Positions 5,975 to 35,423 of a DNA stretch of 38,243 nt are shown here, in pieces. How positions within the stretch are numbered: the first letter of the stretch is position 1; the number at the start of each line of letters is the position of its first letter. The notes under the pieces were generated by a model, which searched no databases, had not been told where the DNA came from, and was given only the letters and a program-made list of their open reading frames with translations. The translations under genes were made by a program, and so were the position numbers. The DNA lies in the IMG/VR virus record IMGVR_UViG_3300032092_000100, positions 1 to 38,243 of that record, one strand, 5' to 3'. The stretch comes from a virus (taxonomy: Duplodnaviria > Caudoviricetes).

Positions 5975-6619
5975 ATGGCTACACTCAATAATATTGGAGA
6001 TATATATGATCAGCTTTTAAATAAGTTAGGTAAAGATGCTTTTGGTAACTTGGTTACTCCAGAAGCTTTTAACCAAGCTGCTGCATATGTTAATATGGAG
6101 AAGCTAAATGACTTCTTAGAAGTTTCTTCTCAAGATAGAGAAATTGTTGATGACCTTAGACCATTTGCTAAGACAACTACTCTTTCAGTTAACCCTTCAA
6201 CAAATGAAGTTTTAACTCCTGGAGATTATATAGCCTATATACAATTAGTTGTGCAAGGCACTTTGAGACAAATAGAGATGTTGACTTGGGAGGATTATGC
6301 ATATAGACTTTCTACTTCGTTGTACTACCCTACAACTGATAGACCTATTGCGACCATACAAGATGATGGTATATTTGTAGCCCCTAACTTAACTAATGTT
6401 ATTTTAACCTATGTAAGAGAGCCTCAAACTCCAGAATATGGTTACACAATTGACCCATTAACAGGTCTTCCTGTTTATGATCCATTAACAAGCACTCAGT
6501 TTGAATATCCTGTCGATGTTTATCCTGATCTTGTAAATATGTTATATAAATATTTTGCTATTAACATCAAAGATTTTAATAGCCTTCAAACAGTAGAAAT
6601 AGAAAAAGGTAGACCATAA
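5975..6619 (+). CDS. Tail ring / head-tail connector protein
   Basis: 214 aa; VTPEAFN, LTYVREPQTPEYGY, YDP..STQFEYP pattern seen in crAss-like ring proteins; synteny. Confidence 0.65.
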   Translation: MATLNNIGDIYDQLLNKLGKDAFGNLVTPEAFNQAAAYVNMEKLNDFLEVSSQDREIVDDLRPFAKTTTLSVNPSTNEVLTPGDYIAYIQLVVQGTLRQIEMLTWEDYAYRLSTSLYYPTTDRPIATIQDDGIFVAPNLTNVILTYVREPQTPEYGYTIDPLTGLPVYDPLTSTQFEYPVDVYPDLVNMLYKYFAINIKDFNSLQTVEIEKGRP

Positions 6620-7221
6620 TGACTAAAAGACAACTAGTTGAATTGATACAGGAACGTCTCGCAAGCGGTGACGTACCTAACGATATTATGGGTAGATATA
6701 AATATCAAACCGTTGTTGCTTTGTTAGACATCGTTTATCAAGAGACGGCAAGTGTTGATATAAATGCCTTAGGAACTATGGTTGAGCCATATGCTTTGCC
6801 AGTTCTTGTTACAGGAACTCAATACTATAGTGATTTAAATGTCTCCCCTGCTTATGGACCAATGAGCGTTAAGTATGCTATTGATTATGGAGAGGAGGGT
6901 GACACTATATTCTATTCTCGTCAGAGCGATGATCAGAACTTGTTTTTGAATAGAATTAAGAACATGTCAAAGCCAGAGTTTTATGTTCGTGATAAACGAG
7001 TTTTGTGGACAAGCGATCCAGGATCTGTAAACGTAACATATTTTATAATACCTGCATTCTTGTCAATGAGCGATACTCAAGAGATTGTTGTTCCTACTAC
7101 TATTGGAGCTTTAGCTACTCGTGTTATAGAATTGATTAGATCTACAGATACTCGTGCTGAGGAAGTAATTGCTGATTTGGCAGAAGATAACAACCCAAAA
7201 CCTACTAAATATTCTGAATAA
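6619..7221 (+). CDS. Putative tail ring/structural protein
   Basis: 200 aa, TAATG-coupled to its neighbours in the tail operon. Confidence 0.55.
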   Translation: MTKRQLVELIQERLASGDVPNDIMGRYKYQTVVALLDIVYQETASVDINALGTMVEPYALPVLVTGTQYYSDLNVSPAYGPMSVKYAIDYGEEGDTIFYSRQSDDQNLFLNRIKNMSKPEFYVRDKRVLWTSDPGSVNVTYFIIPAFLSMSDTQEIVVPTTIGALATRVIELIRSTDTRAEEVIADLAEDNNPKPTKYSE

Positions 7222-7940
7222 TGCCTCCAGTTAAAAATATAGAATACGTTATACAAACAGCTTTAAACCGTGTTAAAGGTCAAGCTACAGATATTCCTCG
7301 TTTAGAGCAGATAGCTATAGAGTGGATGAGCGAGGTTATTCGTGGAACTACAGCTTTTCCTTGCTTGAAAGTTACGCATATAACTCTTAATGCTAATGCA
7401 CAGGCAACCATACCCTCTGACTGTATGAGGGTCACAAAGATTGCCTTGAATAAAGGCGGTAGATTGTATTCTTTAGGACTAGATCCGCTTCTAACATTAA
7501 TTGATGAGGGTGGTACTCCTGGAGGGCCAGAAGATGGAAACGGATTTTATTTCATAGACCACTCGTGGAATGGGGTTTATTATCCTGCCCTTTTTGCTTC
7601 TGGAGGGGGATTTGCAGAGGCGTATTATAGAATATACCCTGACAATCAGACCATTCAGTTGAGTAATAATGTGTTTGGTGGAGAAATTGTTTTAGAGTAT
7701 TTAAGTACAGGTAACGATATAACGAGTGCTACATTAGTGCCTCATTATTATATTGAGCCTATGCGTAATTACATTATTTGGCAATTAGCTGAGTTTGAGC
7801 CTCAGAAATATCCATTTAATGCAAAAGATAGAGAAAGAATTTACACTGAATCAATGGCTGATGCTGCTATGTCTACAGGTAATACAATTGATGAATTGCT
7901 TGACGCTTACTACTCAGCTCCTGGTTTGAAATTAAGATAA
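7221..7940 (+). CDS. Putative tail ring/structural protein
   Basis: 239 aa; IPSDCMRVTKI and IVLEYLSTG...VPHYYIEPMRNYI motifs as in connector/ring proteins; TAATG coupling. Confidence 0.6.
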   Translation: MPPVKNIEYVIQTALNRVKGQATDIPRLEQIAIEWMSEVIRGTTAFPCLKVTHITLNANAQATIPSDCMRVTKIALNKGGRLYSLGLDPLLTLIDEGGTPGGPEDGNGFYFIDHSWNGVYYPALFASGGGFAEAYYRIYPDNQTIQLSNNVFGGEIVLEYLSTGNDITSATLVPHYYIEPMRNYIIWQLAEFEPQKYPFNAKDRERIYTESMADAAMSTGNTIDELLDAYYSAPGLKLR

Positions 7941-7946
7941 TAAATT

Positions 7947-10900
7947 ATGTATTCATTGTCCAATTTTTTTAACGGTGGGATGAACACCGATGATGAAGAT
8001 CGTCTAGTACCTATTGGAGATTATAGATCAGCTGCTTATTCAAGGAGCTACTCCGTTGGTACAAGTGATAATGGAGCTTTACAGTCAATGACTGGTAATT
8101 TATTAATAGAAAATCCAGATTTACCTAGGGGTAAGAATGTAATTATAGGCAGCTGCGAAGATATTGAAGGGAAGGGGTATAAGGCAGGTAATTTAATATT
8201 ATTTTCATGGAACTCTGAAGGTAATCATTCAATATGGAGATATAATGTTGTTGGTCAAGAATATCAGCTTATACTTCAAGATAGTATATTAAATTTTAAA
8301 CTGCAAAATAGAATATATCATGCGGCAGTAGTTGATGGTTTACTTTATTGGACAGACAATTATTTTAATTCTTATGAATTAGATCCTACTGGATTGCCAG
8401 ATTTTAATCCTCCACGCAAGATCAATATACAAAAGGCAATATTATATACAGAAAGCGGAGGAATTGATCCAGAGGGTTATTCTGAAATTACATTTGATAA
8501 TTTAGATTGGATTAAACATCCACCATTGTTTTCTCCAACAGGTCAATACATAACAGATACTACAGAATCAGCTAACAACTTAAAGAATAAATTATTCCAA
8601 TTTAGATATCAATATATTTATGATGACAAAGAAGAATCTGCATGGTCTCCTATATCGGATTTATTTCTCCCTAATGAAAGTGAGTATATATCTGGGACAA
8701 CTAATATAGATCCATATATTGATAACACGATTCGCTTAAATATAAGCACAGGATCTTCAATAGCCAAAATAATCAGGGTTGCGTATAGAATTGGCAACAA
8801 CTCAGAGTTTTTCTTGTACAAAGAGTTTATAAAATCAGAGCAAGGTTGGGCTGATTATTCTAATGTAACTGTAGACTTTAAAAATGAGACTGCTGGGGTC
8901 CCAATTAGCAACTCAGAACGGAATTATGACTTAGTGCCTCAGATTGCAAAATGCGTTGAGTATTTGCCGTCTAATGAGTTTGCGATGGGTAATATAATAG
9001 AGGGTTATGATAAGCCAGATTTAACAGATGTTAATTTTGACTTTGATATAAATATTAATACTATAGATAACACGGCTTTTACCGCTCCACTAGCTGACTT
9101 TATTAATATACCTTACCTAGGAACGAGACGTAATATTATTAGTTTAAGTAATGTTAAAGGACAATTTTTTTTAAAATATAGATTTGAACCTGGTGATATA
9201 TTGATACTGCAATTAAAGCAATCATCGGCAACAGCAGGTGCTAATAATAATTTATTGACTCCAGACCCTGTTTTGTATTACACAATTCCAGCTGTAGATG
9301 GAACAGTTTATAATACAGATTTATTAAAAATTCTATATGTAACTCAGGATTTATTAAGTTTTCTTAATTCAAATGGTATTGCAGCGACTATTGGATCGCC
9401 ATTTACATATGATGGTAATTTAGTTAACTGGCCTACTATTGATTTGATTTATAATACTTGGTATAATCAAACTGATTGGCAATTAGAGCCATCAAATACA
9501 GAGTCATATAGTTTAAATATAAATGTGTTGAGGATTAATAATGCTAAAAGAACCTTTAAAACAGGGGCTACGCATGAGTTTGCAATTCAGTATTATGACA
9601 GGGCTAATCGTGATGGAACTGTATTAACTATACCTACAGGAAGTGTTTACAATCCTTTTTATTACGATTATCAAGATAGTTACTTAAATAACATATGTTC
9701 GTTGAGAAGAAAACCCTTCTATACAACTATGCAAATGACTATTCCAGATGATTTTCAACCACCTGTTTGGGCTACAAATTACCAAATACTGTATAAGCCT
9801 TCTACTAATATTGCTAATTTCCAACAAAGATCAGTAATTAAGGCAACTTACAACCCAGATACTACGGTTAAATTATTTCTAGATAATTATTACAAGCCTA
9901 ATTACGAGGGAGCTTCAATTAATCAAACTCCTTCGAAAGGGGACTTTGTTCGTTTTGTAAGAAAGAGAGCCTTGTTTACTAAGGAAAATGCTCTTCTAAT
10001 ATCTAATGGACTTAATTTAGGATCTATAACTAGACCTTTAAATCCTACATTATTAGACACATATTATTTCTTGTTTGAGTCCAATCCTCCGACAAATGAC
10101 CATTTAACTGTAATATGTGACCCTACAGGAGCTTTCTCACCACCTGGTGCATTTACAACTGTCGGTGTAACTAATTATAGGTTTGAATTTAATTCACAGT
10201 TTACTTTAAGTTGGGATTTAGGATATGCAACTCCAACATCTGCAACTGTTCAATTTGTTTTATACAATACTTCTACAGGGGCATTTATTGGAACTTTAAG
10301 TTCTAATGTTTATACTACCCTTACAAATGGAATGACCATTAATATAAATGGTGTAACGCCATTTCTATCTTTAGCCGCAGGGATAAATGTTTCGTATGGA
10401 GTAGCTGTTGAATTTGCAGGAGGTGTGGGTGCTTATGCCCCAAATGCTACATTGAACTTTTCTAGTTACACAATGAGTGTGTATAAAAACAATGTGGACT
10501 ACGATGATTATAATTATTATCCAAGTTATGTAACAAATACAGACGAGATAAATTATGAGTTGAATGTTTTATCATATAATCCAGGTGATGAAAACGAAGG
10601 TGAGTCAATTACAGTAAATTATTTTGATATTTCTTTACTTGGGGATTATTTATTTTATACAGGTAATAATAGCCGTAGAGGATTTGCATCTGGAGGGTTT
10701 CAGATAGAAATATACACGCCTAAAAAAGAAAGTGAAAATGATCCTTGGTATGAGACAGGAATTGAATGGGATATTATAGATCCTCATACACAAAATAGAA
10801 GACATGATGGAGATACAGCACAGGTATTAAATACAACTAATGCTGTTGTTGATTTAGATTGTGGAGACGTGTATATTAGGCAGAGAATTATGGCAACTGG

Positions 10901-14616: not shown

Positions 14617-17600
14617 ATGGCAAATTTACAAGATCTCTACCTTTTATTATCTCAAGAACCTCGTATTTCTGAACCAGCAACATACGAAGAGTTTGAAGAA
14701 AGAATGCAGGATCCAGAATATAATGAACATATTTCAAAATTAGCTAATTGGGCTGGATATGATGTTTCTACATATGAAGGCGTAAAAAAAAAAGAGGATT
14801 TTATGGAAGAATCTGCTCAGCAATTAGGGCAGGTTTCAGAGCCGCAAAATCCGATTACAGGAGAAACCCAAGAGGTCTCTACTGAAGATCAAGTTCAATC
14901 TGACTTACCAGATTTTTTAGCAGTTCCAAAAGCAATGGAGATGCCATCTGCCCCTACGTCTGTTTTTGGGGCGGCTCCTAAACAAGATGTAGTTGAAGAA
15001 GAGGTGGATTTAAATCAAAATCCAGACCCTAACAATCCAAATAACCCATATGATTTAGGCACTTTTTTTCATCCTGCTGCTAGTGCTATTCAGACAGGGA
15101 ATAAGGTAAGAAAAAACTTTAGAGATAAATATTCCTTGAATATTAATTCGTCTATTGATGGTGCAAAAGATTTCATTAAAGAAGAAAATACAATGGCTAA
15201 AGACATGGGCTTGCCAGAGGATGAGGTTTCTGAAGATAGTATGAATGTTGATGCATCTGAAGATGTAAATATGATTGATGATGGTGGTAAGAGAAAAAGA
15301 AAAAAGAAGAAAGAGGAGAATGTAGATGGGCAAGAATTGCCTACTGAAGGTGGAGTTAAAGAATTTGAAAATCCACTTCCTGGTGTAGAAATTATTGGTG
15401 TATATACTACCGATCAAAAAGATAAAAGAGGAAGAAAGAAATATCAATACATAATTCAAGATAAAACTACAGGTGCTAAGGGCGTTGGTTCTAAGCCAAA
15501 ATTGATGGAGGGTGTTGAAAATGATGCCGTTTGGAAATATGTAATTAATGAAAAGCCAGATACAAAGTTCTATGATGATGATAGTATGTGGCAAGATTTA
15601 AACCAGGCTGTGATCACGGTTGCTGACTACAATGGAAAGTTAGATTCAGATTATAGCGAGAATTTAAAGCAGCACAGAATAAAATATGCTGACAAATTAG
15701 GATTTAAATACAATGAGGAAACAGGTGATTTAGAAACCGATCCAACATTTCAGTACGAGTCTGGGGCCAATAAAGGTACAAATATTATTGAGATCAAAGG
15801 CACAAAGAAGGAAGATAAGGGTAAGAAATCAATCTTTGGAAAAGCATTAGATTGGGCAAAGGAAGCAGTAGGGGATGTTAAAGAATATTTTGGCGAGAAG
15901 AAAGCCATCAATAAGATTGAGAAAAACTTATCTGGTGCAAATAGAAGAATGCAAGATAATAAGTTGATAGAGGATGCTGCAAATCTTTTAGATGAGACTA
16001 AATACATAAATAATTTAGATGAGGATTTCTCAAGAAATTTGAATATCTCTCAAGACTCAAAAAACTTTATTACACATTCAAAAATATCTACAAAAGATAT
16101 TCTTCTATCTACAGAGACAGACTTAATTAATAAGGTTAAAAACAGTGGGTATTTAAATACATATTTTAAGCCTCAAGTAACTGAGGTTATTGAAGGTGGA
16201 GTTGCTAATGCGGCTGTAGCTGGCCAAGAGCAAATAATAGATCCTTTAACAGATCCAGAAAGATATCAAGAAAGACTTAATCAACTCTTTGATCAGGAGG
16301 CAAAGCGTGTTGCCAGAGAATTAAAAAGAGATGCTAGATATGTATTGGCAGATAAATACATACAGGCTCAAATAGAAAAGGGGGTTCCAGAATATAAGAC
16401 GGAACAAAGAGATAGATTGAGACAAATTTATCAATCTAGATTAGATGAGGCAAATCCTTTTGAATATGAAGATATCGTTTCAAATGATAAAAGGGAAGAG
16501 ATTGGATGGACAGAGGCAGCAAGAAAATCAAACAACTACACTGTAAACAAAGGAGACGCTGATTTTGCATCAACAATATATTCAAACTCGTATAGCGACT
16601 ATATAAATAGACCTCAGGCAGAGGCGTTTATTGCAGGTGAAAACTTAGCTATAAATGGGGTTGAATCTGATGGTGATTCTTTAAGGATCCGTGCCGAGTA
16701 TTTGACTAATAGACTTAACCAAGAAAAGTCAAAGGATGGCCTTGCTGATGATAAACAAATTAAAAATGCAATGTCTGAAATCAACACCGTAAAAGTTGAG
16801 CTTTCAGATATAGAGAAAAAAATTAACAGTAAAAATGAAAAGCTATCTTCTTTAATTATAGAGGAAGATGGTGAAAAATATTATGCCTCAGAGGAAGCTC
16901 AAGAAGAGGGTGAAAAATTAGTCTCTGAGATAGAGGCTCTTACTAATGAATACAACAAAGTATATGAGAGAATAAAAGAGCCAAACAGATTATTATCTCA
17001 GTACAGTTCATATGTAAACAAAACAGGTGGCTTGTATAAGGAGTTAGAGAATATTAACTCAAGATTAAATGAATTATCTAAGGATTCTAATATAGTTAGA
17101 CTACAAGAGCTTAATAGTACATTGGAGCAGATAGATATTTTGGATTGGGATAAGAAAAATGTACAGAGAATAGAAGATGAAAATGGTAATTTAAATATAA
17201 CTCAGTTAAAAACCAAGGCACAAAATGGCGAGCTTTCTAATTTTGAAGGTTACGAAATTTTAAAAAATCACGAGAAGAAGGGATATCAAGATCGTGCTAA
17301 TGACGAAGATTTTTGGGGTTTTGTATTTGATATGCCGTATAAATTAATGCAGGCAGGTTCAGCATCTGGAGGAGGACTTCTTCAAACAATAAAATATGCT
17401 GGTGGATTTGTTGAGACTGTTGTGTCTTATCCAAGCCAGGCTTTAGGGTATGATGTTGAGGAGAATTGGATCAATGAAGATGAGAATGTATGGACATCTG
17501 CTGACATAGAAAAAGAATGGTTTAAAGGAACAACTGAATACTTTTCTAAAGAAGTTGTAAATCCTGCTTATGAAAAATACGGAGCTGCGTGGTGGGCAAG

Positions 17601-20600
17601 TACAGTTATACAACTTACTCCAGACTTACTTGCTGCTGCTGGTGGTACTGCAGGTGCAGTTAAAATAGGTCTCCAATCAGGAGTGAAAGCAGGTGTAAAA
17701 TATGCAGCAACAAATGCAACTACAGCTTATTTTGCCACAAGACTAAGCGGTGAATATATGAAAGAAGCGGAGGAGGCAGGATACTCTCCTATGCAAGCTT
17801 TTGCTATGGGAGGTTCTTTAGGTTATGTTGTATCTATGATGGAAAGCTTATTCCCAGAGATTCCTACTTTCCAACAAATCACCTTAAAGAGAATGGCAAG
17901 ACAGATTGTATCTAATGGTATAAGAGATGGTCTTACGTCAGCTCAAATTGCCTCAAAAATATCAGCAGGTTTTTTTGAGATTACAGGAAAATCAATGGCA
18001 AATATATTAGGCCATGTTGCTAAGGAAGGTGTTGTCGAGGAAGGTAATCAGTTTATCGTTGAAGAAGGATTTATGTCCGCTATTGGGGCTAGAGAATTAG
18101 AAATTATAGATCCAAAAACTGGTAATTTCGGCAGGTCTTTAACTCAATATTTTGACAATGTTGCTATCGGAGGACTTGTAGGTGGTCTTATGTCTTCAGG
18201 ATCTACTATTAAGTCTATCTTTAATGAAAAGATGAGTGATCTTACTAGGAAACAAACATTCTTAGCGATGGGTCGAGATTACGATTCTATATTAGAAAAC
18301 GTACTAAACTCTAATAAAGATTTCAAAGAAACGGCTGCTTTTAAGGAGTTAAAAAATATAAAAGAGGAATATGATAAACTTGCTGCAAGCGAGGTGTTTG
18401 AGCAATACGATGACGTTGCAAAGGGTGATATATTAGACCTGTCTCTAAAGCTACAGTCTTTAATAGAATCGCAAAATGCTTTAGCTAAAAAAGGAGTATC
18501 CAATGTTAAGATAGATTCTATAATATCGGCAACACAGAAGCAGTTAAATGATGTTTTAGAGGCTGCTGATGAGAGAGCTGACCAAAGATCAAAGGTTAAT
18601 GAAGAGCTAAATAATTTAGGTGTTAATTTATTCTTTTTAAATCCAGATGGTTCAGTGAGAACTGTTTTATTTAACAGTGGAGTTAAAAAAGAAGAACAGG
18701 AGGCACGTCTTCCTAAAGCATTAGAAATAATAAATAATAATTATAAATTTAATCCTCAAGAAGATGCCGTTCAAGAGTCAGAAACAGGTCAAGTTCCTGT
18801 ACAGCCAGAAGCCGCAGTTGGCCAACAAGTGGAGAAAGGAGTATCCCAAGCAGAACCTCAAGTCACTACCGAAGCAGTCGAGGAGGAAGTAATAATAGAT
18901 AAGCCTGCTATAACTCAAAATACAACTGAAGAATTAAATAGAGTTAAGTCTTTAGATCTTTCTGCTGAAGATGGGGCCACATTTAATATAGGTGGAGATA
19001 AATATGAAGGGGTTGGTTTAGTTATTCCTGTTATTAGTAAAAATACAACTACTGAAGAAATAACTCCAGAAATGATTGCTGATTTTGTTGAGGAGCATTC
19101 TAGCAAAATAGGTGATACAGATGTTGTTAAATTTGGTATATATAAATTCCCTAATAGCAATAAAGTATCTATAGATTTAAATATTGTTGCTCCAGCATCA
19201 TCAAGAGAGCAGGCGATTGAATTTGCAAGATTAGCAGATCAAGAGTCTTTATTTGATTTAGGCACATTTGAAAACATAAAAACAGGTGGTACAGGTTTAA
19301 ATCCTAGACAATTTAATGATGCTGAATTTAAAGAGGTAGCAAGAGCTATGCGTGAAGGTAGACTTCCTAACATAGAAGGATTTGCTGATAATAAATCGAA
19401 AGTTGATAACATAGATCAGATAACGTCTCGTAGAGAAAGATCTTCAACAGAAACTGAAACTGCTCCAGAAACTGCCCCACAACAAAAAGTTACATTTGAT
19501 CAAGCTGTTGAAAATGCTAATCAAGCAGGGTTCAACATGTCTGATAAAACACGTTCAAGAGAGTTATCTGATCGTTCTACGGACCCTAAGAAAAAAAGAA
19601 TTGTTGAGCAAGCAAATAATGCGGCAAGAACATTAAAGTCAATCCTCCCAGACTACGATATTATTGTATTTGAAAATGAAAAGGAATATGATGATTATCA
19701 AAGATCTATTAATGGGACTACAGGGACTAGTGGTTCATTTACTAGATCAGCAGATGGGAATAAGGGTGTTATAGCTATAAACTTATCCAATGCCAATTAT
19801 AGGACAGTTTCTCACGAGATGACTCACGCATTATTGTTTAAGATATTTGGTGAGAATCCTGCTGTTTTTGAAGAGTTTAAAAAGAAAATTTCTGATTTAG
19901 CAAAAGGTGAATTGATCAAAGGTGTAGATAAAAATGGAAAAAGTTTTACGATGTCCTTTGATGATTTTATTAGCGACTTAGTATCAAATAAAATATACAA
20001 TGATTCTGAACGTGCTGAGGAGTATTTGTCTGAGTTGGTAGGTCTTATCACGCAGTTAGACATGTCTAGTCCTACAACAAAGTCTATCCTTAAATCTATA
20101 GGTGATTTCATCAATAAAATAATATCAAGATATTTTGGCAATAGATTAAAAGCAATTGATAACACTTCTTCTCCAGAAGAAGTTATGGAGTTCTTACAAA
20201 CATTCTCGGCTAGTGTCGCTTCAGGTAGTAAGCTTAGAGTTACTCCTGTTAAGGAGGAAGTTAAGAATGTTGATACAAATGGTGAATTAAAAACAAAATA
20301 TGCTTTAGGAGGAGATTTTGAAGCCACTCTTATGCCAGAATCTGATTTGAAAAAATTGGAAGATGATGGGTACTTAATTCAAAATGCAAAAATAGAAGAT
20401 TTAAATGGTGAAGTTGTAATATCAATGTTCCCAGATAATAAAATGGTAGGTGACCTATCTTATGGTACTTATAAAAAAGACACAGAAGTTGATGGAATTA
20501 AATATAAGAAAGGAGATAAAAGAATAGTATTACAGGGTAATGGAGGTTTGCATTTTGCTCTTAAATATAATGAAGATGGTACATTCTGGGCCTCAACTCC

Positions 20601-23600
20601 TAAGTTGTCAAAGATATTTGTCAATTTAGTGAATAAAATATTTGATAAATACCCAGGCAAACCTGTAAGAGTAGTTGTATTTAAATCAACAGATTTAAAA
20701 GTGTTAAGTAGTCGAGACGGAATGGCTGCCGCTATGGATATTTTAGAGTTGGCGGTTCAAGATGGTGATATACCATTAAGTGTGTTTAGAAATGCATTAA
20801 ATACGGCAGTTAAAGAAGAAAAGGATAATGATGGGATTAAATTATTTAGCGGCAAATTAAGTGCAAAAGAACTTCATAGCATTATAAAAGATTATTTTAT
20901 AAGCTCTAATGATGAGACTTTTAAGAAAAGAGTTGATGTTGGAAAGAAAATTATAGCTGAGGTATTTAAATCTAATGAAATTAACTTTAGTAGTTTGTCT
21001 GATAAGTTAAATATCCCACTAAATAAAAGCGGAAAAATAACAGTTGATGCAGCAACCAAAAGATTAGGTAATGTGCAAGAAGAAGGTTTTATGGAAAACG
21101 TTCCCTCTGAATCAGCAGTTGCTTATATTGAAATACCTTCTAAATTAATTGTAGAAGATGAGTCTAATATTCCAGCGAAAGAAAGAAAACATATTTCTTA
21201 TCCAGGAGTAATGAAAACAGTAGATGGTCAAAGAGTGACTGTTCATATGTTATCGGAAAGAAATAATTGGAGGGAAATTTTAGCTTCTGTAAATGATGGA
21301 GATATAACAACATCTGAAAAACTTGAAGATAACGTATTATTATCTGATTTAGAGTATGGAGCAAATTTTGCTGGAGCTAGAAATATTCCATATGCCCCTG
21401 TTAGAATTAATACATCAAATAAGTCTAAGTCTAAATCTCAAGTAATTATAACTCCACAAGAAGCATTAGAGAGATATCCTGAATTAAAAAATACTAAGGT
21501 TGTAGATAGTAATGGTGATCCTTTATTGGTATATCATGGAGGTCCTACTTTTACTGAATTTAAACCTTCTCAGACTAAAGAAGATAAAGGTATTTATTTC
21601 ACTGATAATTATGATTTTGCATTATTTTTTGCTCATCAACACGAATTAGTTGAAAGAGATAAAAGAAATGACGATTATAAAGATGTACCAAATGAATTAT
21701 TAGAAACTGGGGAACCTTTTCCTGAACAATATTTTAAATACGCTAAAGTTCAAGAAGCATATTTAGATATTCAAAATCCTACAATAGTTGATTCTATAGA
21801 TGCTAAAAGTATACCTGATAATTATGAAAAAGGCAAAGATGGTTTTATAGCAAAATCAACAGGAGATTTTGGATATAAAGGTTCTCAATATGTGGTATTT
21901 GAAACTAAACAAATAAAAAATGCCTTATCATCCAAATCTCAAGCAAAATCTAATACATTAATAGATCAGGCTAAATTAACGGGCGAGATGACTGAGGATG
22001 ATCAAGGTAATTATTTATTCTACCACTATTCTCCAAATAAAATCTCCTCCATTGATCCTAAATACTTTGGTAAAAATACTTCTAGAACAGGAAGAGACGA
22101 GAGACCTGGCTTAAATATCAGCATGTACTATACTCGTCCTGACGTATTGGATGTATCTGGTAAATATGGGTATGTAGTAAGAGTTCCAAAAGATAAAGTT
22201 TATCCATTCAATGAGGATCCTTTAAATCTTTATGATGCAGCAAAAGCTGAGTTTGACAAGATGTATCCAGGACAAACTTTTGATGCGAATAAACAAGCGG
22301 CATTTATTGCTCAAGAAGCTGCTAAAATTGGATATCCAATGACTGTTGCCAAATGGGGTGATAATTTAAGAGCTGAGACAACTGAGAAGATGAAGGGTGA
22401 GTTTTATATGAGACCAGATAAAGAATATCCTTCTACAGTTGAATTTAATCCAGAGCTTGAAAAATTTGAGGCTAATGAAGTTTTGGAGCAAAATAAAAAA
22501 TCTGGAACTGTTACAAAGTCGCAGGCGAAAAGAAGCGATCTAAGCAAAGATGATAGTATATTATTAGATACTGCAATAGAAGAGGCTATCGGTAGAATTA
22601 AGTCGGGATCTGGCTTACAATTTTCTCTAAATAATCTTATCGATCAAGTTAGAAAGATAAAGTCTGTTAGGGATAAATCATCTTTTAGAAAGAAAGAGAT
22701 TGAGCAATCGGTAAAAGAAGAAGTTGTTAAGACCATTTCAAGAGAGATTGCTGGAGATGCTAAATCCTACATGGATACTCAGAACTTGACAAAAGAAAAA
22801 GCTATAGAGATGGCTTTATCTAATGCAATTAATGCAGGCATTGAGTTTTCAACTGCCGATGAAATCAAGGCTGATGTTAGAAAGCAGTTGGATAACATTA
22901 TCAAAAACACTCAGAAGCAGGAAAGAGCAAATCAGCCAGAGATAACTTTAACAACAACAGAGAGGGATGCCTTGAACCAACAAATTAAGAAGATGGCTTC
23001 TGACATCAAGGCTGTTGTTAGCGACATGAAGAAATCCTTCAAGGAGAAAATGAAGGGTGAAAGGGATATGAGAAAGATGTTATCTTCTTGGGTTAAAGAT
23101 TATCTTAAAAGCTCTGGAATATCAGATAAATTAACTCCTGCACAAATGCGTGCAATTGTTAATAGAGCTTTGAGTTTAAATCTATCCATGACAGATAAGC
23201 AATTATCTAATTTCATAGAGTATGTAGATAAGATTGTGGCTAATCAAAAAATGGCTTCTCAGATGGATTCTTTAAAGAAAAATAGAAAAGAGGCATTAAA
23301 GAGAAAGCACAATCAATACACTCAGTCTGTTAAAAAATTCTTGACCATTCCTTTGTTTGGATCAGATGGAGAGATGCTTTTGACTCCTAGTGAGATGTCT
23401 GAATATTTTGACGTTGTTGAAATGTTAAATCAAAATATCCCAGACCATTCAATGATGGATATGGCATTAGCTGATAAAGCTTTAGAGAATTACATTGATA
23501 TTCCAGAGATTGTTACACAGGATGATTACTTGGATAAGCTAAACGAAATAAATGACTTTGATATTAATAGCATTGAAGAGTATCGTGAATTTGTTAAGCT

Positions 23601-26600
23601 TGTTAATTCAGCAGTAAATATTGTAAATTCTTTATACAACAATGGATCTATAGACGAGGTTGAAAGAGCTGAGATGTTGGATACATTGTATTCAATGGAA
23701 GATGGTTTAAGAATTTATGATGAGAATCACCAAGATCAAATAGATAATCTCAAAAGAGAAATTATATCTAACTTAATACAAAAGATTCCAGGAGTTGATG
23801 TTAGCGGATTGATTGGAGATCAAAAAAATCTATGGGGACGATTTGAGACATTGATGAGTGTTTCAAAATCTGAAGGTTTGATGAAGTTAGACATTAAAGA
23901 TTTAATGAAGCTTGAAGAAGCTCTAGATCGAATGGAGTATGGCTTTATGCCAGAAGCTGACTTTAGAGATATTGTAAATAAAGCTGAGGTTCGCTACCGT
24001 CAAATGGGTAAGGCTATTACAAATCAATTAAATGGTTTGTATGGCAAGATGAAAAACATCGTTACTAATTTGATGAAGCGTAGATTATTTACCGAGGAAT
24101 CTTTCCAATGGGAAAAAGTTTTAGGTATTGGTCAGGAAAGTAGTATATACAAATATCTTATCGATCCTATAGACAGAGGAATCCGTAAGATGAATACTTA
24201 CGTTAAGAATAATATTGATAAATATTATGAAGAGAAGAAAGCTATAAGAAAACCTAAGTCTGGATTCTTCAGCTTTGTTCCTAAAAAATCTATCCCAAAT
24301 AAACCAATAAAGATATTTGGAAGAGATATATTGAGATATACAGCTAAGGTTAGTTATGACACATACTATGATACTAGAGTAGGCGTGATATCTCATATCT
24401 TAGACAGTGGACACAAAGCTGTTTTCTTCGGTCAAAAATCAAATGATTGGTTAGGAAAACAATTGAATGATCCTGTGGTAAGAGCAGCTTATGGTAGCGA
24501 TGTATATATTTTAGATAATATATATGAGGATCTTATGAGTAATCCAAACTTTGTCACTAATGGCAAGCTAGACTATTCTAAGATATACGAGTCATATGTT
24601 AATGATCCTTCATCTGTATTTAGTAATTATGAAAACTCTGTTTATGAATTATTCAGAAAGAATGTTCAAAAGGCAGGTGAGTTAATTGTAAATGCCAATG
24701 CTATCCGAGGAATCAACGGGGAATTAAATCCTTTTCACTCTCCTCGTAAGTATGTTGGAGACTACAAAAATGCGGCTGAAGCTGATTTATTAAAAGGCAC
24801 ATTTGGTAAATATGGATCTATTCGATCTGGTTCTTCATATACTAGGGTGCTTGTTGATCCAAACGGACCTTTAAACTTTAACATTGATCAAATTGTTGCC
24901 GAACAAATTACTGAGTCTGCACGAGATTACTATTTGAACGATGCTATTTCTTTTACAAATGCTGTAATTCAGAATGCAAAAGAAAATTCAACCACTCCTG
25001 TTGAAAGATCTGTATTATCTGCTATATCAAATTCAAATAGAAAGCGTGTAGACTTTGAGATATCTAGACCAGAAGGGGAGAATATATTAACAAGGGCATA
25101 CAATAATTTGGCTAGTGCCTTTGCTAAAAAAGTTTTACTACCTCCTAAGCGTTTGGTTACGGAATTAATTACCAACGTAACTTCTGGAGCGTTAAGACAG
25201 AAAACATTGAAAGGGTTCAATCCTTTATCAATGATTGAAGCTAAAAAGATAATGGAGAAGTTTAACAGCCCTGTTGCTGACATGGGTTGGAGATTTAAAA
25301 CTTACGCTTCTATGGGCGGATCTAAGTTGAATAGAAAGTCAATGCTTGGGTTTATAGAGAATATTACAAGCTCTGCCCTAAACATTGCAGGTCCTACTGT
25401 ATTTGGTGAGTGGATGGGTAATTTTGAGCGTCATTTCTATCAATTAAGCGGAGAGAAATACAACCAAGCAAAACATTTGAACTCTCCAGAACACCAGTAT
25501 TTTATCGAAGAAGCTGCTGCTTATGCTAACAGACAAATAGGTAAAATTCGTGGAGGATCTCTTAAGGGTCAAACTAGAATGAAGTACAAAGTTCTTCCAG
25601 AGATATTCTTTGTCAAAGATGCTGTTACAGGCGAGCTTAATGAGAGAAAGGGTGTTGTTGATCCTAATAGCTTCTTAGGTCCAATTGTAAACTTCTTTAA
25701 CAACTTCGTTTACCGAGATGTTACCAACTTCATGTATGGCACTAAAGAAGCTGCTATTGGAGCCGTGAGATTAGATTCTAAGAAATTTGCAGATGGTTTA
25801 GGATCAGTGTTTGGGTCATCTTACTCTTTAAGTATATATCCAATATTAGGTTATATTTTAAATCAGTTATGGAACATCAGATTTGGAGATGATGAGGAGA
25901 AGGAAAAGGCGAAAGTGGCTTTAAGTAAATTTGAATCAAAAGAGGGAATAACTTCTTTCGCATCAGATATATTTGTCAATCTTGCCATGACACTTGGCAC
26001 TTCTAAGTTTGGATTAACTGGTAGAGCTACTGCTATTGGGGCCTTACAAGCCATGAGAAATAGTCCAAATTTTGATTCTAAAGTTATTGATGACTATCTA
26101 CAGACATTCTATTATGTGAAAGGTGTTGATTTTAATAAGAGTGATGCACCTGATGAAATGATGGCTGATTTATTAGGTATAATTTCTCCTCCGATATCAG
26201 ACTTCACAAGAGAGGCTGTAATATTAACACAGGATTTAATATCTGAGCCTAAATATAACAGAGCTACAATAGCTGATGTTTGGGAAGAAGGTGGTAAATT
26301 CTTTAACGACAAAGATGTTGTTGACTATAAAAAACTTCTATCTGGCTTAGTAATGTTGGCTAATGTTAATTTAGCTATGAAAGGTGAAGCTTTGCCTATG
26401 TCTAGAGCTTTGTTAAATGTTTTAAAAGATTCTTCCGAAAAAGAACAAGATATTGTTATTATGTCAAGTGATGATAAATACAATCTTGTGGCTGGTGTTC
26501 TTGATTTTGAAGATGGCAAAGGCAGATTGATTGTTCAAGGTGAAAATAAAGATGAGACGGAACTACTTTCAAATGCCGCCACAGAGTCATTTATTCGCTT

Positions 26601-27141
26601 AATAGAGGAAAATAAAAACGAATTTAAAGATTTAGATGAAATTCGTAAAAATAAAGATAAATACAGTAAAGATGCGATTAGAGAAGCTAATGTTATAGCA
26701 TTTTCATTGATCCAAGATTTAGCTGAAATGGCAAAATATGAAGCTAAAATAAAATATAATATTGCTTCAAATGAACCTAAGTCATCATTTAGAGAAGATA
26801 TGACTGATGATGAATTAAATAAAGCTTTATATAAAGCTGATTCTATATATCAAGATGCCGAATCAAAAAATAAGTTTTCGGAGAATTTCAAAGTTGAAAT
26901 GATGAAACGTGAGAAAGCAGAGTTCTTTGCTAATCCTCCATCAACCATTGTTAATGGTGTAGATATTAAAGATATCAGAGAGGCTTATAACAATATACCT
27001 AACACTAATATAGGTTTGCAAAGAATGGTAAGAGATTATTTTGAGGACTTATTTGATTATCAACAAGGATATATTATGGATCAGCCAGATTTTGCAGAAT
27101 ATTTTTCTTATAATAACAGATCAAAAGAGATAACTGATTAA
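14617..27141 (+). CDS. Giant polyvalent virion/ejection protein (zincin metallopeptidase, ART-PolyVal-like and further modules)
   Basis: 4174 aa; HEMTH at aa 1733-1737 with downstream EE; VVDSNGDPLLVYHG...GIYFTD...AYLDIQNP...DGFI...YVVFETKQIK; Gly/Ala hydrophobic segments at about aa 900-1200; long coiled coils. Confidence 0.8.
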   Translation: MANLQDLYLLLSQEPRISEPATYEEFEERMQDPEYNEHISKLANWAGYDVSTYEGVKKKEDFMEESAQQLGQVSEPQNPITGETQEVSTEDQVQSDLPDFLAVPKAMEMPSAPTSVFGAAPKQDVVEEEVDLNQNPDPNNPNNPYDLGTFFHPAASAIQTGNKVRKNFRDKYSLNINSSIDGAKDFIKEENTMAKDMGLPEDEVSEDSMNVDASEDVNMIDDGGKRKRKKKKEENVDGQELPTEGGVKEFENPLPGVEIIGVYTTDQKDKRGRKKYQYIIQDKTTGAKGVGSKPKLMEGVENDAVWKYVINEKPDTKFYDDDSMWQDLNQAVITVADYNGKLDSDYSENLKQHRIKYADKLGFKYNEETGDLETDPTFQYESGANKGTNIIEIKGTKKEDKGKKSIFGKALDWAKEAVGDVKEYFGEKKAINKIEKNLSGANRRMQDNKLIEDAANLLDETKYINNLDEDFSRNLNISQDSKNFITHSKISTKDILLSTETDLINKVKNSGYLNTYFKPQVTEVIEGGVANAAVAGQEQIIDPLTDPERYQERLNQLFDQEAKRVARELKRDARYVLADKYIQAQIEKGVPEYKTEQRDRLRQIYQSRLDEANPFEYEDIVSNDKREEIGWTEAARKSNNYTVNKGDADFASTIYSNSYSDYINRPQAEAFIAGENLAINGVESDGDSLRIRAEYLTNRLNQEKSKDGLADDKQIKNAMSEINTVKVELSDIEKKINSKNEKLSSLIIEEDGEKYYASEEAQEEGEKLVSEIEALTNEYNKVYERIKEPNRLLSQYSSYVNKTGGLYKELENINSRLNELSKDSNIVRLQELNSTLEQIDILDWDKKNVQRIEDENGNLNITQLKTKAQNGELSNFEGYEILKNHEKKGYQDRANDEDFWGFVFDMPYKLMQAGSASGGGLLQTIKYAGGFVETVVSYPSQALGYDVEENWINEDENVWTSADIEKEWFKGTTEYFSKEVVNPAYEKYGAAWWASTVIQLTPDLLAAAGGTAGAVKIGLQSGVKAGVKYAATNATTAYFATRLSGEYMKEAEEAGYSPMQAFAMGGSLGYVVSMMESLFPEIPTFQQITLKRMARQIVSNGIRDGLTSAQIASKISAGFFEITGKSMANILGHVAKEGVVEEGNQFIVEEGFMSAIGARELEIIDPKTGNFGRSLTQYFDNVAIGGLVGGLMSSGSTIKSIFNEKMSDLTRKQTFLAMGRDYDSILENVLNSNKDFKETAAFKELKNIKEEYDKLAASEVFEQYDDVAKGDILDLSLKLQSLIESQNALAKKGVSNVKIDSIISATQKQLNDVLEAADERADQRSKVNEELNNLGVNLFFLNPDGSVRTVLFNSGVKKEEQEARLPKALEIINNNYKFNPQEDAVQESETGQVPVQPEAAVGQQVEKGVSQAEPQVTTEAVEEEVIIDKPAITQNTTEELNRVKSLDLSAEDGATFNIGGDKYEGVGLVIPVISKNTTTEEITPEMIADFVEEHSSKIGDTDVVKFGIYKFPNSNKVSIDLNIVAPASSREQAIEFARLADQESLFDLGTFENIKTGGTGLNPRQFNDAEFKEVARAMREGRLPNIEGFADNKSKVDNIDQITSRRERSSTETETAPETAPQQKVTFDQAVENANQAGFNMSDKTRSRELSDRSTDPKKKRIVEQANNAARTLKSILPDYDIIVFENEKEYDDYQRSINGTTGTSGSFTRSADGNKGVIAINLSNANYRTVSHEMTHALLFKIFGENPAVFEEFKKKISDLAKGELIKGVDKNGKSFTMSFDDFISDLVSNKIYNDSERAEEYLSELVGLITQLDMSSPTTKSILKSIGDFINKIISRYFGNRLKAIDNTSSPEEVMEFLQTFSASVASGSKLRVTPVKEEVKNVDTNGELKTKYALGGDFEATLMPESDLKKLEDDGYLIQNAKIEDLNGEVVISMFPDNKMVGDLSYGTYKKDTEVDGIKYKKGDKRIVLQGNGGLHFALKYNEDGTFWASTPKLSKIFVNLVNKIFDKYPGKPVRVVVFKSTDLKVLSSRDGMAAAMDILELAVQDGDIPLSVFRNALNTAVKEEKDNDGIKLFSGKLSAKELHSIIKDYFISSNDETFKKRVDVGKKIIAEVFKSNEINFSSLSDKLNIPLNKSGKITVDAATKRLGNVQEEGFMENVPSESAVAYIEIPSKLIVEDESNIPAKERKHISYPGVMKTVDGQRVTVHMLSERNNWREILASVNDGDITTSEKLEDNVLLSDLEYGANFAGARNIPYAPVRINTSNKSKSKSQVIITPQEALERYPELKNTKVVDSNGDPLLVYHGGPTFTEFKPSQTKEDKGIYFTDNYDFALFFAHQHELVERDKRNDDYKDVPNELLETGEPFPEQYFKYAKVQEAYLDIQNPTIVDSIDAKSIPDNYEKGKDGFIAKSTGDFGYKGSQYVVFETKQIKNALSSKSQAKSNTLIDQAKLTGEMTEDDQGNYLFYHYSPNKISSIDPKYFGKNTSRTGRDERPGLNISMYYTRPDVLDVSGKYGYVVRVPKDKVYPFNEDPLNLYDAAKAEFDKMYPGQTFDANKQAAFIAQEAAKIGYPMTVAKWGDNLRAETTEKMKGEFYMRPDKEYPSTVEFNPELEKFEANEVLEQNKKSGTVTKSQAKRSDLSKDDSILLDTAIEEAIGRIKSGSGLQFSLNNLIDQVRKIKSVRDKSSFRKKEIEQSVKEEVVKTISREIAGDAKSYMDTQNLTKEKAIEMALSNAINAGIEFSTADEIKADVRKQLDNIIKNTQKQERANQPEITLTTTERDALNQQIKKMASDIKAVVSDMKKSFKEKMKGERDMRKMLSSWVKDYLKSSGISDKLTPAQMRAIVNRALSLNLSMTDKQLSNFIEYVDKIVANQKMASQMDSLKKNRKEALKRKHNQYTQSVKKFLTIPLFGSDGEMLLTPSEMSEYFDVVEMLNQNIPDHSMMDMALADKALENYIDIPEIVTQDDYLDKLNEINDFDINSIEEYREFVKLVNSAVNIVNSLYNNGSIDEVERAEMLDTLYSMEDGLRIYDENHQDQIDNLKREIISNLIQKIPGVDVSGLIGDQKNLWGRFETLMSVSKSEGLMKLDIKDLMKLEEALDRMEYGFMPEADFRDIVNKAEVRYRQMGKAITNQLNGLYGKMKNIVTNLMKRRLFTEESFQWEKVLGIGQESSIYKYLIDPIDRGIRKMNTYVKNNIDKYYEEKKAIRKPKSGFFSFVPKKSIPNKPIKIFGRDILRYTAKVSYDTYYDTRVGVISHILDSGHKAVFFGQKSNDWLGKQLNDPVVRAAYGSDVYILDNIYEDLMSNPNFVTNGKLDYSKIYESYVNDPSSVFSNYENSVYELFRKNVQKAGELIVNANAIRGINGELNPFHSPRKYVGDYKNAAEADLLKGTFGKYGSIRSGSSYTRVLVDPNGPLNFNIDQIVAEQITESARDYYLNDAISFTNAVIQNAKENSTTPVERSVLSAISNSNRKRVDFEISRPEGENILTRAYNNLASAFAKKVLLPPKRLVTELITNVTSGALRQKTLKGFNPLSMIEAKKIMEKFNSPVADMGWRFKTYASMGGSKLNRKSMLGFIENITSSALNIAGPTVFGEWMGNFERHFYQLSGEKYNQAKHLNSPEHQYFIEEAAAYANRQIGKIRGGSLKGQTRMKYKVLPEIFFVKDAVTGELNERKGVVDPNSFLGPIVNFFNNFVYRDVTNFMYGTKEAAIGAVRLDSKKFADGLGSVFGSSYSLSIYPILGYILNQLWNIRFGDDEEKEKAKVALSKFESKEGITSFASDIFVNLAMTLGTSKFGLTGRATAIGALQAMRNSPNFDSKVIDDYLQTFYYVKGVDFNKSDAPDEMMADLLGIISPPISDFTREAVILTQDLISEPKYNRATIADVWEEGGKFFNDKDVVDYKKLLSGLVMLANVNLAMKGEALPMSRALLNVLKDSSEKEQDIVIMSSDDKYNLVAGVLDFEDGKGRLIVQGENKDETELLSNAATESFIRLIEENKNEFKDLDEIRKNKDKYSKDAIREANVIAFSLIQDLAEMAKYEAKIKYNIASNEPKSSFREDMTDDELNKALYKADSIYQDAESKNKFSENFKVEMMKREKAEFFANPPSTIVNGVDIKDIREAYNNIPNTNIGLQRMVRDYFEDLFDYQQGYIMDQPDFAEYFSYNNRSKEITD
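18764..18892 (+). CDS. Nested +1-frame small basic protein, MPFKSQKQVKFLYSQKPQLANKWRKEYPKQNLKSLPKQSRRK (42 aa)
   Basis: Hand translation ATG 18764 to TAA 18892; AT-rich upstream region; resembles small phage proteins beginning MPFKS-x-KQ with a conserved W (recalled, not searched). Confidence 0.65.
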   Translation: MPFKSQKQVKFLYSQKPQLANKWRKEYPKQNLKSLPKQSRRK

Positions 27142-27163: not shown

Positions 27164-27661
27164 ATGAAAAAACCTGTAAAATTACCATCTGATATTGTAG
27201 GCATGTTGCTTCCTCGTTTAAATGACGAGTTTAAGGCGGCATACTTTTACCGTGCAGCATCAAATTGGTGCAATAATGTAGGATATTTTAAGGCTGGAGA
27301 ATTTTTTGCCAAAGAATCTGAGGACGAGTTTGGTCATGCTAAAAAGATTGAGCAGTTCTTAGTTGATTGGAATGTAACTCCAGACTTACCTACAATTCAA
27401 AAACCAGTCAACACATTTTTAAATCTTTGTGAATTGATATCTCAGGCATATCAAATGGAGTATGCTCTTTACGAGGCTTATGAAGATACAAGCTTAAAGA
27501 TATTTAAAACAGGCGATATGTGTGTTTTTGATTTTTTACAGCAGTATAGAACAGGTCAAACAAAAGCTGTTGCTGAATACAGCGACATGTTAAATGTTTT
27601 GGAAGGAGTGAATTGTGATAGTAAATTTGAAATGTTATTACTTGAAGAAAAATTATTCTAA
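27164..27661 (+). CDS. Ferritin-like protein (non-haem ferritin family)
   Basis: 165 aa; LNDEFKAAYFY, FFAKESEDEFGHAKKI (ExxH), MEY, FDFLQQY..Q align by eye to FtnA. Confidence 0.88.
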   Translation: MKKPVKLPSDIVGMLLPRLNDEFKAAYFYRAASNWCNNVGYFKAGEFFAKESEDEFGHAKKIEQFLVDWNVTPDLPTIQKPVNTFLNLCELISQAYQMEYALYEAYEDTSLKIFKTGDMCVFDFLQQYRTGQTKAVAEYSDMLNVLEGVNCDSKFEMLLLEEKLF

Positions 27662-33117: not shown

Positions 33118-33431
33118 TTCATATTGTATATCACATCTATAACTCTTTGTCTTGTTTCTTCATCGTAAATAAACTTAAGAGCTTCATTTAAAGACTCAGT
33201 GGTTGTATCTGTGTGTACAAATTTAATAAAAGCAGGGTCAACTAATTCAATATCACCGTCCATACTTTCAACAATGCCAGTGGTTTCTCCGCTAGATATC
33301 CCCCAACAGTGGAAAAAACCAATCTTGGCATTGTCAAAATGTATGATTTCACGATCACCTACGTCTCTGAAACAGGCCCTAGATTCAACTAGGATCCCGT
33401 TCCAATATTTAACCTTTCTGTACGTCCTCAT
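33114..33431 (-). CDS. Hypothetical protein
   Basis: 105 aa, coupled to neighbours; GFFHCWG...GIVESMDG pattern of small phage proteins. Confidence 0.6.
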   Translation of the reverse strand: MRTYRKVKYWNGILVESRACFRDVGDREIIHFDNAKIGFFHCWGISSGETTGIVESMDGDIELVDPAFIKFVHTDTTTESLNEALKFIYDEETRQRVIDVIYNMK

Positions 33432-33681
33432 GAATAATTAATAGGATATCGTCAACAGGCACAATACCTACATCGATATCATTTTCTTTTATGAAGTTGG
33501 CCTTTTTGATTGTAAACTTAATTCTGTCTCCAACTTTGACATCATTAACTTCTGGCCCTATAGACGTTACCAGACCTTCATCCCACACTTCTTTTGCATT
33601 AAATTCAGTGTGTAAGATTTCAGATTTCACATCTTTCCTTGAAAGAACTGTGAACTTTACTCGATCAAATAGTGGTTCCAT
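33409..33681 (-). CDS. groES: GroES-like co-chaperonin
   Basis: PLFDRV, GLVTSIGP, VKVGDRI, DDILLII motifs. Confidence 0.8.
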   Translation of the reverse strand: MEPLFDRVKFTVLSRKDVKSEILHTEFNAKEVWDEGLVTSIGPEVNDVKVGDRIKFTIKKANFIKENDIDVGIVPVDDILLIIHEDVQKG

Positions 33682-34739: not shown

Positions 34740-35423
34740 TTATCTGTTTTTAATTCGGTCAAGCAAGAATCTTTTGTAGGCGATAGCTTTTTCGAGTACA
34801 TTGTTAATAACATCCTCGGTATTTGACTGTAGAGTTACAGGGATCAAAGCCATTTTAGCTTTACCATCCATTCTCGGATCGTAGGAGATAAACATACCCT
34901 CTTTGTTATTCGTGATAAGCATGTTCATCTGTAGCTGCCACCAGTAATTCTTGTGAGCCTTGAGCAGTTCAGCCTCGTTCTCGATTAGAAGATTCTCAAC
35001 ATGGTTCTCAGCGTTATATGGGCATTTAACCTCAATAACTCCGTAGGTTGAGCATAATCCATCGGGTGAGCCTCCTGCATGGTCTCCGTAAGCTATGAAA
35101 CCAACAGACTCCACAGTAGATTCAACAAGCGATGAGTACAATGATATGGCTTCTGCCTCATGATCAATACCCCAAGTTGTAGCTGCTGTCTCTGTAGTGT
35201 GTTCAATCCCTGTCAATTCCTCTGCGACTTTGGATTTGATATAGGATTTAGTGGTTTCTGATAACTCGCCCCGTTCCCTAGCGTCTTTTGATTGGGGCTG
35301 GGTCATCAGCTTGTATATCTCACTCGATGTAAATTTACCGAGTCTGGCACTGAACCAAGCCTTAGACCGCTGATCAGCGGCCTGTGCTTGTTCTTTTAAT
35401 ATTTCATTCAGTAGGTTATTCAT
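34740..35423 (-). CDS. YqaJ/lambda-exonuclease family 5'-3' exonuclease
   Basis: QRSKAWFSARLGKFTSSE, WGIDHE, GGSPDGL, IEVKCP, YWWQLQMNM, FISYDPR motifs. Confidence 0.92.
   Translation of the reverse strand: MNNLLNEILKEQAQAADQRSKAWFSARLGKFTSSEIYKLMTQPQSKDARERGELSETTKSYIKSKVAEELTGIEHTTETAATTWGIDHEAEAISLYSSLVESTVESVGFIAYGDHAGGSPDGLCSTYGVIEVKCPYNAENHVENLLIENEAELLKAHKNYWWQLQMNMLITNNKEGMFISYDPRMDGKAKMALIPVTLQSNTEDVINNVLEKAIAYKRFLLDRIKNR

Follow-up and report, generated by a model that had tools for sequence, protein, structure and literature searches.

Organization of the tagged cassette

The window analysed here is the whole 38,243-nucleotide (nt) stretch of virus record IMGVR_UViG_3300032092_000100, for which completeness is estimated at 57%. 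It encodes a giant polyvalent protein in which three modules, A, B and C, follow a conserved HExxH peptidase, each module being bounded by a short peptide tag, K-[ST]-K-x-[QAS]. The giant gene is laid out as follows (aa, amino acids).

14617..27141, + strand: giant polyvalent protein, 4174 aa, last gene of the head-tail-ejection module
18874..19416, + strand: upstream swappable module (aa ~1420-1600), a lead towards S-adenosylmethionine (SAM) lyases; no KSQ tags
19537..20256, + strand: zincin-like metallopeptidase (MPTase) domain; HEMTH at 19813-19827, third ligand E1802 at 20020-20022
20290..20307, + strand: tag 1, KTKYAL (variant), aa 1892
20308..21414, + strand: module A, 370 aa (aa 1897-2266), a conserved family present in 60 of 198 stored proteins
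21421..21444, + strand: tag 2, KSKSKSQV; holds AAATCTCAAG at 21433; left breakpoint of the module B replacement in relative L026
21445..21924, + strand: module B (aa 2277-2436), ART-PolyVal ADP-ribosyltransferase (ART)
21928..21948, + strand: tag 3, SSKSQAK; holds AAATCTCAAG at 21934; right breakpoint in L026
21952..22494, + strand: module C, 181 aa (aa 2446-2626), with invariant H2470 and Y2505
22510..22530, + strand: tag 4, VTKSQAK
22534..27138, + strand: C-terminal backbone region, no family above cut-off, nearly tag-free

A sequence-only reading of this DNA had placed boundary motifs at KTKYAL (aa 1892), K2273, K2440 and K2634, and all four are found there. The tripeptide KSQ occurs exactly three times in the giant protein (K2273, nt 21433; K2440, nt 21934; K2634, nt 22516), with an expectation of 0.22 in aa 1651-2640 (Poisson P about 0.0014, post hoc). 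The identical sequence reported at two junctions is AAATCTCAAG, which has two copies in the window (21433 and 21934, spaced 501 nt apart) and none on the minus strand. KTKYAL is taken as a variant of the same tag because relatives show KSKYSL, KSKQAL, NKAQV, SSKSQT or YKLQN at this joint. The consensus of 123 distinct tag matches is [IPV]-K-S-K-[SAQ]-Q-hydrophobic, its centre being fixed by the search pattern, and other lineages have their own versions (KGKAS, IQYQK/IKFQK, RxQA, SRRQ).

Module exchange at the tags in relatives

That module gain, loss or replacement among homologues should break at KSQ had been set beforehand as a test, and this expectation was borne out. The homologue set comprised 54 proteins plus the 150 listed of 548 matches (198 distinct proteins); breakpoints were scored in 35 of the 48 proteins with at least two tag matches, using alignment segments of at least 65% identity and a distance of 15 aa. 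Within that distance of a tag lay 68 of 113 homology breakpoints, compared with 11.3 expected at random (2000 draws never gave more than 22). Lowering the identity threshold to 50% placed 92 of 203 breakpoints near a tag (20.2 expected).

Individual relatives illustrate the pattern. In P0002-P0004, the N-terminal 1400 aa are 96-99% identical to the window, yet module A is joined directly to module C and module B is absent; excising the 501 nt that separate the two repeats would yield the A-C joint of P0004 from the window sequence. P0008 contains a 92% identical module B, between KSQ tags, in a backbone only 25-30% alike, and module B is absent exactly at that tag in P0016, a relative of P0008. 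Two lineages hence show module B lost or gained precisely at the tag: window versus P0004, and P0008 versus P0016. L026 is 92-97% identical to the window in long matching stretches, departs at 21440 and rejoins at 21934; both breakpoints fall on AAATCTCA of the tags, and a 585-aa MORN-repeat module stands where module B was. The MORN-repeat module (L026:2228-3982) consists of an N-terminal domain that bears an NMWCLA motif, followed by MORN_2 repeats, and no homologue of it was found among the 198 stored proteins.

Larger cassettes follow the same scheme. L003 and L004 match at 78% identity ahead of the cassette and 88% beyond it, while inside it only module C is common; the five joints of L004 read NKAQV, KSKAQA, KSKAQI, RSKAQA and TKFQM. 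L004 holds alternative modules at 6305-7396, 8000-9130 and 9149-9925, and includes LPD23 with a second HExxH domain as well as a domain like phage L5 gp82; one of its modules has motifs that we take to be those of helix-hairpin-helix glycosylase-like families (no Pfam match). Independent Pfam domains lie between tags as well, such as a C5 methylase and a nucleotidyltransferase in P0168.

Micro-homology for module swapping, as envisaged by the sequence-only reading, stood in part: the L026 replacement used the DNA repeats at the tag, but the upstream slot swaps without one, so the tag is not required. Exchange in the upstream slot occurred at nt 18874 in three of four runs compared, plus L025, L026 and P0002, and did not involve the KSQ tag; contigs of these four runs, compared over 18500-23200, had joints at 18874 and none at the tags. 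Inserts in this slot (window 18874-19456; L025:500-1000; P0002 aa 1405-1790) are flanked by a repeated acidic peptide, QAEPQVTT-x-EGGKE, which could represent either another tag or a duplication of DNA, and SAM-lyase-type (DUF3293) modules are common there. In P0004, the peptidase (aa 1641-1873) is only 61% identical to that of the window, compared with 96% for the N-terminus and 98% for module C; ordinary homologous crossovers therefore also occur inside domains, beyond the tags.

Conservation of the tag as DNA and as protein

Comparison of tags belonging to the same genome (9 loci) showed silent differences in 87 of 211 codon pairs for the same residue, such pairs not being independent of each other. 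Specifically, tag 4 is encoded by AAG TCG CAG GCG and tag 3 by AAA TCT CAA GCA, a silent difference at all four third positions. The tag is thus conserved both as DNA and as protein, mainly as protein.

Position of the tag and kinship of the peptidase

The first tag follows the peptidase at a distance of about 20 aa. In 18 close proteins, the stretch behind the peptidase contained 67 tags over 22,262 aa, the stretch preceding it 13 over 26,387 aa and the stretch further down 2 over 15,495 aa, counted with a pattern fitted by eye on those same proteins. The same modules could also be compared on either side of the peptidase. The 5′ flank of module C was tagged in 62 of 103 downstream copies and in 1 of 17 upstream copies, the 3′ flank in 51 of 103 and 4 of 17 respectively. 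Likewise, the flanks of the upstream-slot module were tagged in 7 of 12 downstream versus 2 of 27 upstream copies (other flank, 6 of 12 versus 5 of 27), and this type of module is flanked by KSKSQ on both sides when placed downstream of the peptidase, as in P0008 and P0016. Counts for the 3′ flank of module A (4 of 48) and the 5′ flank of module B (4 of 12) were low because the profiles stop 16-35 aa inside the true boundary. In a motif-free test, 51% of 76 proteins had similar 5-mers in the two flanks of downstream module C, compared with 6% in shuffled and 13% in cross-protein controls; for upstream module C the value was 25% of 16 proteins versus 23% cross-protein. Collectively, the tag is retained mainly downstream of the peptidase and is scarce on the same modules upstream.

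Tag type also followed peptidase descent. When 149 rows were placed on a quick MPTase tree, a single 58-row branch took in 40 of the 41 KSQ-type proteins (Shimodaira-Hasegawa-like approximate likelihood ratio test support 82), with 12 label changes versus 36 after shuffling. Among pairs of module C at least 55% identical, 40% of the 203 with close peptidases had similar tags, compared with 4% of the 197 with distant ones. Tags persist across peptidases that are just about 30% identical.

The peptidase and the modules

The HEMTH motif at 19813-19827 and the downstream EEYLSE were both present as the sequence-only reading had claimed: HEMTH, at aa 1733, is the sole HExxH of the giant protein, and EEYLSE is located at aa 1801. 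Among 120 aligned homologues, H1733, E1734 and E1802 are found in 100%, H1737 in 97% and Y1794 in 99%. To judge by sequence, the HExxH together with a downstream Glu ligand matches the MPTase description in the main text of Iyer et al. (2017; PMC5512222). SprT-like and crAss_CARGO2 matches of the peptidase were weak and below cut-off. Scanning viral contigs with the peptidase as a single sequence gave no relative among 39 candidates, a PDB sequence search with a three-sequence peptidase profile found nothing, and PHROGs and NCBIfam gave no name to the peptidase, module A or module C. HEAWE replaces HExxH in 3 of 158 MPTase matches (P0085, P0115, P0121), with the catalytic Glu and the third ligand retained.

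In module B, Pfam PF18760 (ART-PolyVal) matches aa 2297-2441 (E 1e-10, 43 bits, cut-off 31.2), and H-Y-D-type residues (H2307, GIYFT, D2408/D2417) are conserved across 23 homologues. By Pfam, ART-PolyVal is confined to this middle module; modules A and C have no Pfam match. Module C is nevertheless likely to be a second ADP-ribosyltransferase fold, as its model suggests. It reached an Atlas score of 0.92 to ART-PolyVal clusters, and its model (predicted local distance difference test, pLDDT, 77) matched 6kyf best (Z 5.6, root-mean-square deviation (rmsd) 4.3, 115 aligned), with ParT/RES next; an hhalign comparison with module B was not significant. The best matches, 6kyf and 6d0h, have the RES-type ADP-ribosyltransferase fold and are weak (Z 5.6 or lower, 10% identity), which points to a shared fold and does not speak for an anti-CRISPR function. 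We take 6kyf to be AcrIF11 (search record: 'anti-CRISPR protein').

The model of module A (pLDDT 80; best VIA match 1wmm, Z 6.1, rmsd 3.9, 127 aligned) weakly suggests an alpha/beta core like EVE/YTH (PUA-like) domains with a helical insert; this resemblance is a lead towards modified-nucleic-acid binding and no more. Pfam and Foldseek gave no match for module A, and no free-standing form was seen among 4872 candidates of 203-648 aa. Its assignment as GNAT was not adopted (best Atlas score only 0.81), and the module might have an unlisted fold. As to the upstream module, hhalign related it to the DUF3293-type module in the same slot of relatives (probability 77%, pairwise E 2e-5); it has no Pfam match itself and a PDB sequence search was empty.

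The single 4174-aa chain therefore combines disparate domains: MPTase, ART-PolyVal, ART-like, module A and the SAM-lyase-like lead. LPD23 was found in close relatives, and the domains added in relatives are LPD23, a second MPTase, a DNA methylase, a nucleotidyltransferase and DUF3293. On every feature testable here, the giant protein is a phage-type polyvalent protein. A Kyte-Doolittle hydrophobicity scan (19 aa) revealed no stretch above 1.2, so that no transmembrane claim is made.

Late-gene context and the phage

The giant gene closes a structural block, and a recombination pair lies on the opposite strand.

+ strand: portal, phrog_6547
2402-3490, + strand: scaffold-like protein
+ strand: capsid protein, SU10_MCP at cut-off, phrog_13704
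+ strand, structural block: ring-like proteins
+ strand: muzzle-like protein, 1487 aa, followed by two smaller proteins and then the 4174-aa open reading frame
34740-35423, - strand: YqaJ exonuclease, Pfam above cut-off
35416-36279, - strand: RecT annealase, Pfam above cut-off

The portal phrog_6547, virion structural PHROGs and SU10_MCP directly 5′ of the giant gene mark the late virion genes of a terminase-portal phage. Pfam ART-PolyVal, the HExxH and this late-gene context agree with the earlier proposal that a polyvalent MPTase-ART protein sits in the ejection-protein slot. By analogy, the giant protein is likely to be virion cargo that is injected with the DNA, and its homologue in Flavobacterium phage Elemo is annotated as 'structural protein'. 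RecT and YqaJ, whose presence nearby had been noted and was corroborated, are candidates only for the machinery of module swaps.

Most runs containing the window stretch are labelled freshwater metagenome, and no RNA run is listed among them. By portal, the closest cultured phages are Pachyviridae Cellulophaga phages and Flavobacterium Elemo phages, at 22-23% identity over 93-95% of the length; the muzzle-like protein gave a partial match to Pachyviridae/Elemovirus, and the capsid protein had zero matches among 50,697 phage records. Relatives of the phage reach contigs of about 69 kb. The phage itself is uncultured and podovirus-like; Flavobacteria are the hosts of its closest cultured, though distant, relatives. 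We infer a Bacteroidota host, only an inference because of this low portal identity and the unmatched capsid protein.

Other genes deserve mention. A ferritin-like gene (27164-27661; Pfam Ferritin, E 4.5e-20) lies directly behind the giant gene. A GroES-like co-chaperonin (33409-33681, - strand; phrog_3188) is of possible relevance to the folding of large virion proteins. The scaffold-like protein has the C-terminal end SSEKSQLQRYFESQY, the sole other KSQ in the 14 plus-strand proteins examined, which may be chance.

Comparison with known systems

Polyvalent proteins as described by Iyer, Burroughs and Aravind (2017; PMC5512222) are, like the protein studied here, large multi-domain products of late virion genes with an MPTase hub and ART-PolyVal. 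That paper proposed MPTase processing of polyvalent proteins, cited the processing of P1 DdrB, and is the basis for expecting ART domains of such proteins to modify host or defence targets. Its main text names no recognition site, whereas the window protein offers a candidate site, a position rule and base-exact exchange. No named cleavage site or junction motif for polyvalent proteins was found in the open-access literature (PMC, bioRxiv), the supplements of PMC5512222 lying outside the search. An LPD-type protein of phi24B is reported in virions (bioRxiv 10.64898/2026.04.10.717836).

The cultured counterpart is gp18 of Flavobacterium phage vB_FspP_elemo (Elemovirus; YP_010109083, our P0118). 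Its 3694 aa run DUF3293 - MPTase (HEIFH) - module A - module C, and its gene also follows a muzzle-like and two small genes. All three joints, read by eye, have R-x-Q (SRFQ, TRQQ, VRMQ), with Arg where the window tag has Lys. In contrast to the window, module B is absent, and matched parts are 27-35% identical. In all 68 Elemo records the cassette is unchanged, and no proteomics of gp18 was found in the open-access literature. A further peptide, EDAVQ..ETGQVPVQPE (window about 18760-18870, aa 1382-1405), also occurs in gp18; it is matched by many otherwise dissimilar contigs with very high summed depth, and is a widespread conserved peptide closing the N-terminal domain.

P1 DdrB and N4 virion RNA polymerase (vRNAP) are likewise virion-packed proteins with an HExxH MPTase; no repeated junction tag is described for them in the parts of the literature covered, and the window protein is without a polymerase motif. 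The sequence-only reading had called the architecture crAss-like. The gene order supports it: Crassvirales share the order portal-capsid-ring-muzzle-cargo, and their large proteins are expected to be ejected unfolded (Bayfield et al., 2023; PMC10172136). However, the crAss001 cargo includes three RNA polymerase proteins, and the main text of PMC10172136 mentions no peptidase or cleavage. The giant protein had no D-x-D-G-D type RNA polymerase motif and no polymerase family match (cargo locus only), no crAss family of Pfam or NCBIfam was above cut-off in the window, and the nearest cultured phages are Elemovirus/Pachyviridae. Membership of Crassvirales is accordingly not shown.

A predicted cleavage signal and its alternatives

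The tag at four joints, the exchange breakpoints at the tag, the conserved peptidase residues and the position rule are observed. On balance, we regard the tag as probably having two roles, as a signal for cleavage by the in-built peptidase and as a landing pad for recombination. The giant protein would be packed in the virion and ejected with the DNA like other podovirus cargo. In the host, the peptidase would refold, bind zinc and become active (processing inside the head is also possible), and would cut in or beside the tags, so that A, B and C come loose from their long flanks. The freed ADP-ribosyltransferase-like B and C, plus A, could then act on host or defence targets. Because selection would keep the tag at every joint, its coding bases would remain as short in-frame repeats of 8-15 coding bases, usable by recombination (possibly through RecT); with tags at every joint, a module arriving between two of them would therefore be in frame and ready for release. 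More tentatively, each lineage's MPTase may read its own tag, written only behind the peptidase, and a widespread group of aquatic Bacteroidota podoviruses may trade anti-defence enzymes (ARTs, SAM lyases, methylases, glycosylase-like and MORN modules) at tag codons as standard parts, even among distant phages, and release them singly in the cell, which would amount to a co-evolving protease-site code.

Several results weigh against this interpretation. Forty-five of the 113 breakpoints were not near a tag, and in a wider set a generic tag stood behind only 72 of 137 peptidases versus 33-37 of 137 in control windows. Partial rank correlations were weak and near-equal (tag with MPTase given C, 0.15; tag with C given MPTase, 0.17), and kin on the MPTase tree share tag labels. 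Identical codon pairs in tags numbered 124, somewhat more than the 105 that codon usage would give, which is what a role at the DNA level predicts. The three HEAWE relatives, without the second zinc histidine, retain tags (e.g. NRSQK, SRSQK, SRAQK); this case is ambiguous because His-Glu-Glu could still bind metal. HEAWE relatives with Arg tags are a natural control for the cleavage model. The main caution is N4 vRNAP, which carries an MPTase yet is packaged unprocessed, according to the main text of PMC5512222, and whose HExxH domain belongs to a solved C-terminal domain (PMC13434306).

The tags might instead be recombination scars or micro-homologies only, the peptide being a by-product at which the protein is never cut. 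Both L026 breakpoints on AAATCTCA, the excision of 501 nt that reproduces the P0004 junction exactly, the excess of identical codons and the encoded RecT and YqaJ all fit this idea. We consider it unlikely, since tag 4 is silently unlike tag 3 at all four core codons and 87 of 211 codon pairs behave likewise, the upstream slot swaps without a tag, and tags both persist across peptidases of about 30% identity and depend on position relative to the peptidase.

An equally doubtful possibility is that the tag is a non-cleaved binding signal, which docks on a chaperone, the portal/tail or the peptidase-like domain and so sets the order of packing, unfolding or ejection, with the HExxH domain being structural or aimed at host proteins. 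The tags kept by the three HEAWE relatives would agree with this, as would the position dependence, which also fits an ordering signal, and N4 vRNAP, which is packaged unprocessed while its MPTase region is needed for encapsidation (PMC5512222, main text). Such docking is harder to reconcile with a catalytic Glu and a third ligand that are invariant in the 120 aligned homologues. Viral polyprotein sites usually consist of a short linker motif at every joint, and a short lineage-specific linker motif at each joint from the peptidase onward has this usual form. An analogy to viral polyproteins has also been drawn for polyvalent proteins (PMC5512222, main text).

Cleavage of the tags by another enzyme, either a prohead or maturation protease encoded elsewhere in the genome or a host protease, also seems improbable. 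The window covers only about 57% of the genome, tags survive the change to HEAWE, and the scaffold-like protein ends in EKSQLQ, each of which leaves room for such an enzyme; on the other hand, the first tags come some 20 aa after the MPTase and few lie upstream of it, the 14 other plus-strand proteins yield only 2 loose matches, and tag type tracks MPTase kinship. Chance, that is, K- and S-rich linkers yielding KSQ by composition under a pattern picked after looking, is very improbable and already refuted by the homologue data, namely the flank enrichment (51% versus 6% shuffled) and recurrence at orthologous and non-orthologous joints, with 48 proteins having at least two matches.

This analysis adds module exchange at the tag resolved to the base, a rule that sets tagged downstream copies of a module apart from upstream ones, and Elemo gp18 as a cultured model. 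With a site predicted at each of four joints, the 2017 proposal of MPTase processing becomes testable, with same-module and HEAWE natural controls, and Elemo on Flavobacterium sp. BAL314 provides a cultured phage-host pair for doing so. As the tag delimits domains automatically, injected candidate anti-defence modules such as A can be excised and screened. The tag also suggests how polyvalent proteins acquire domains in frame.

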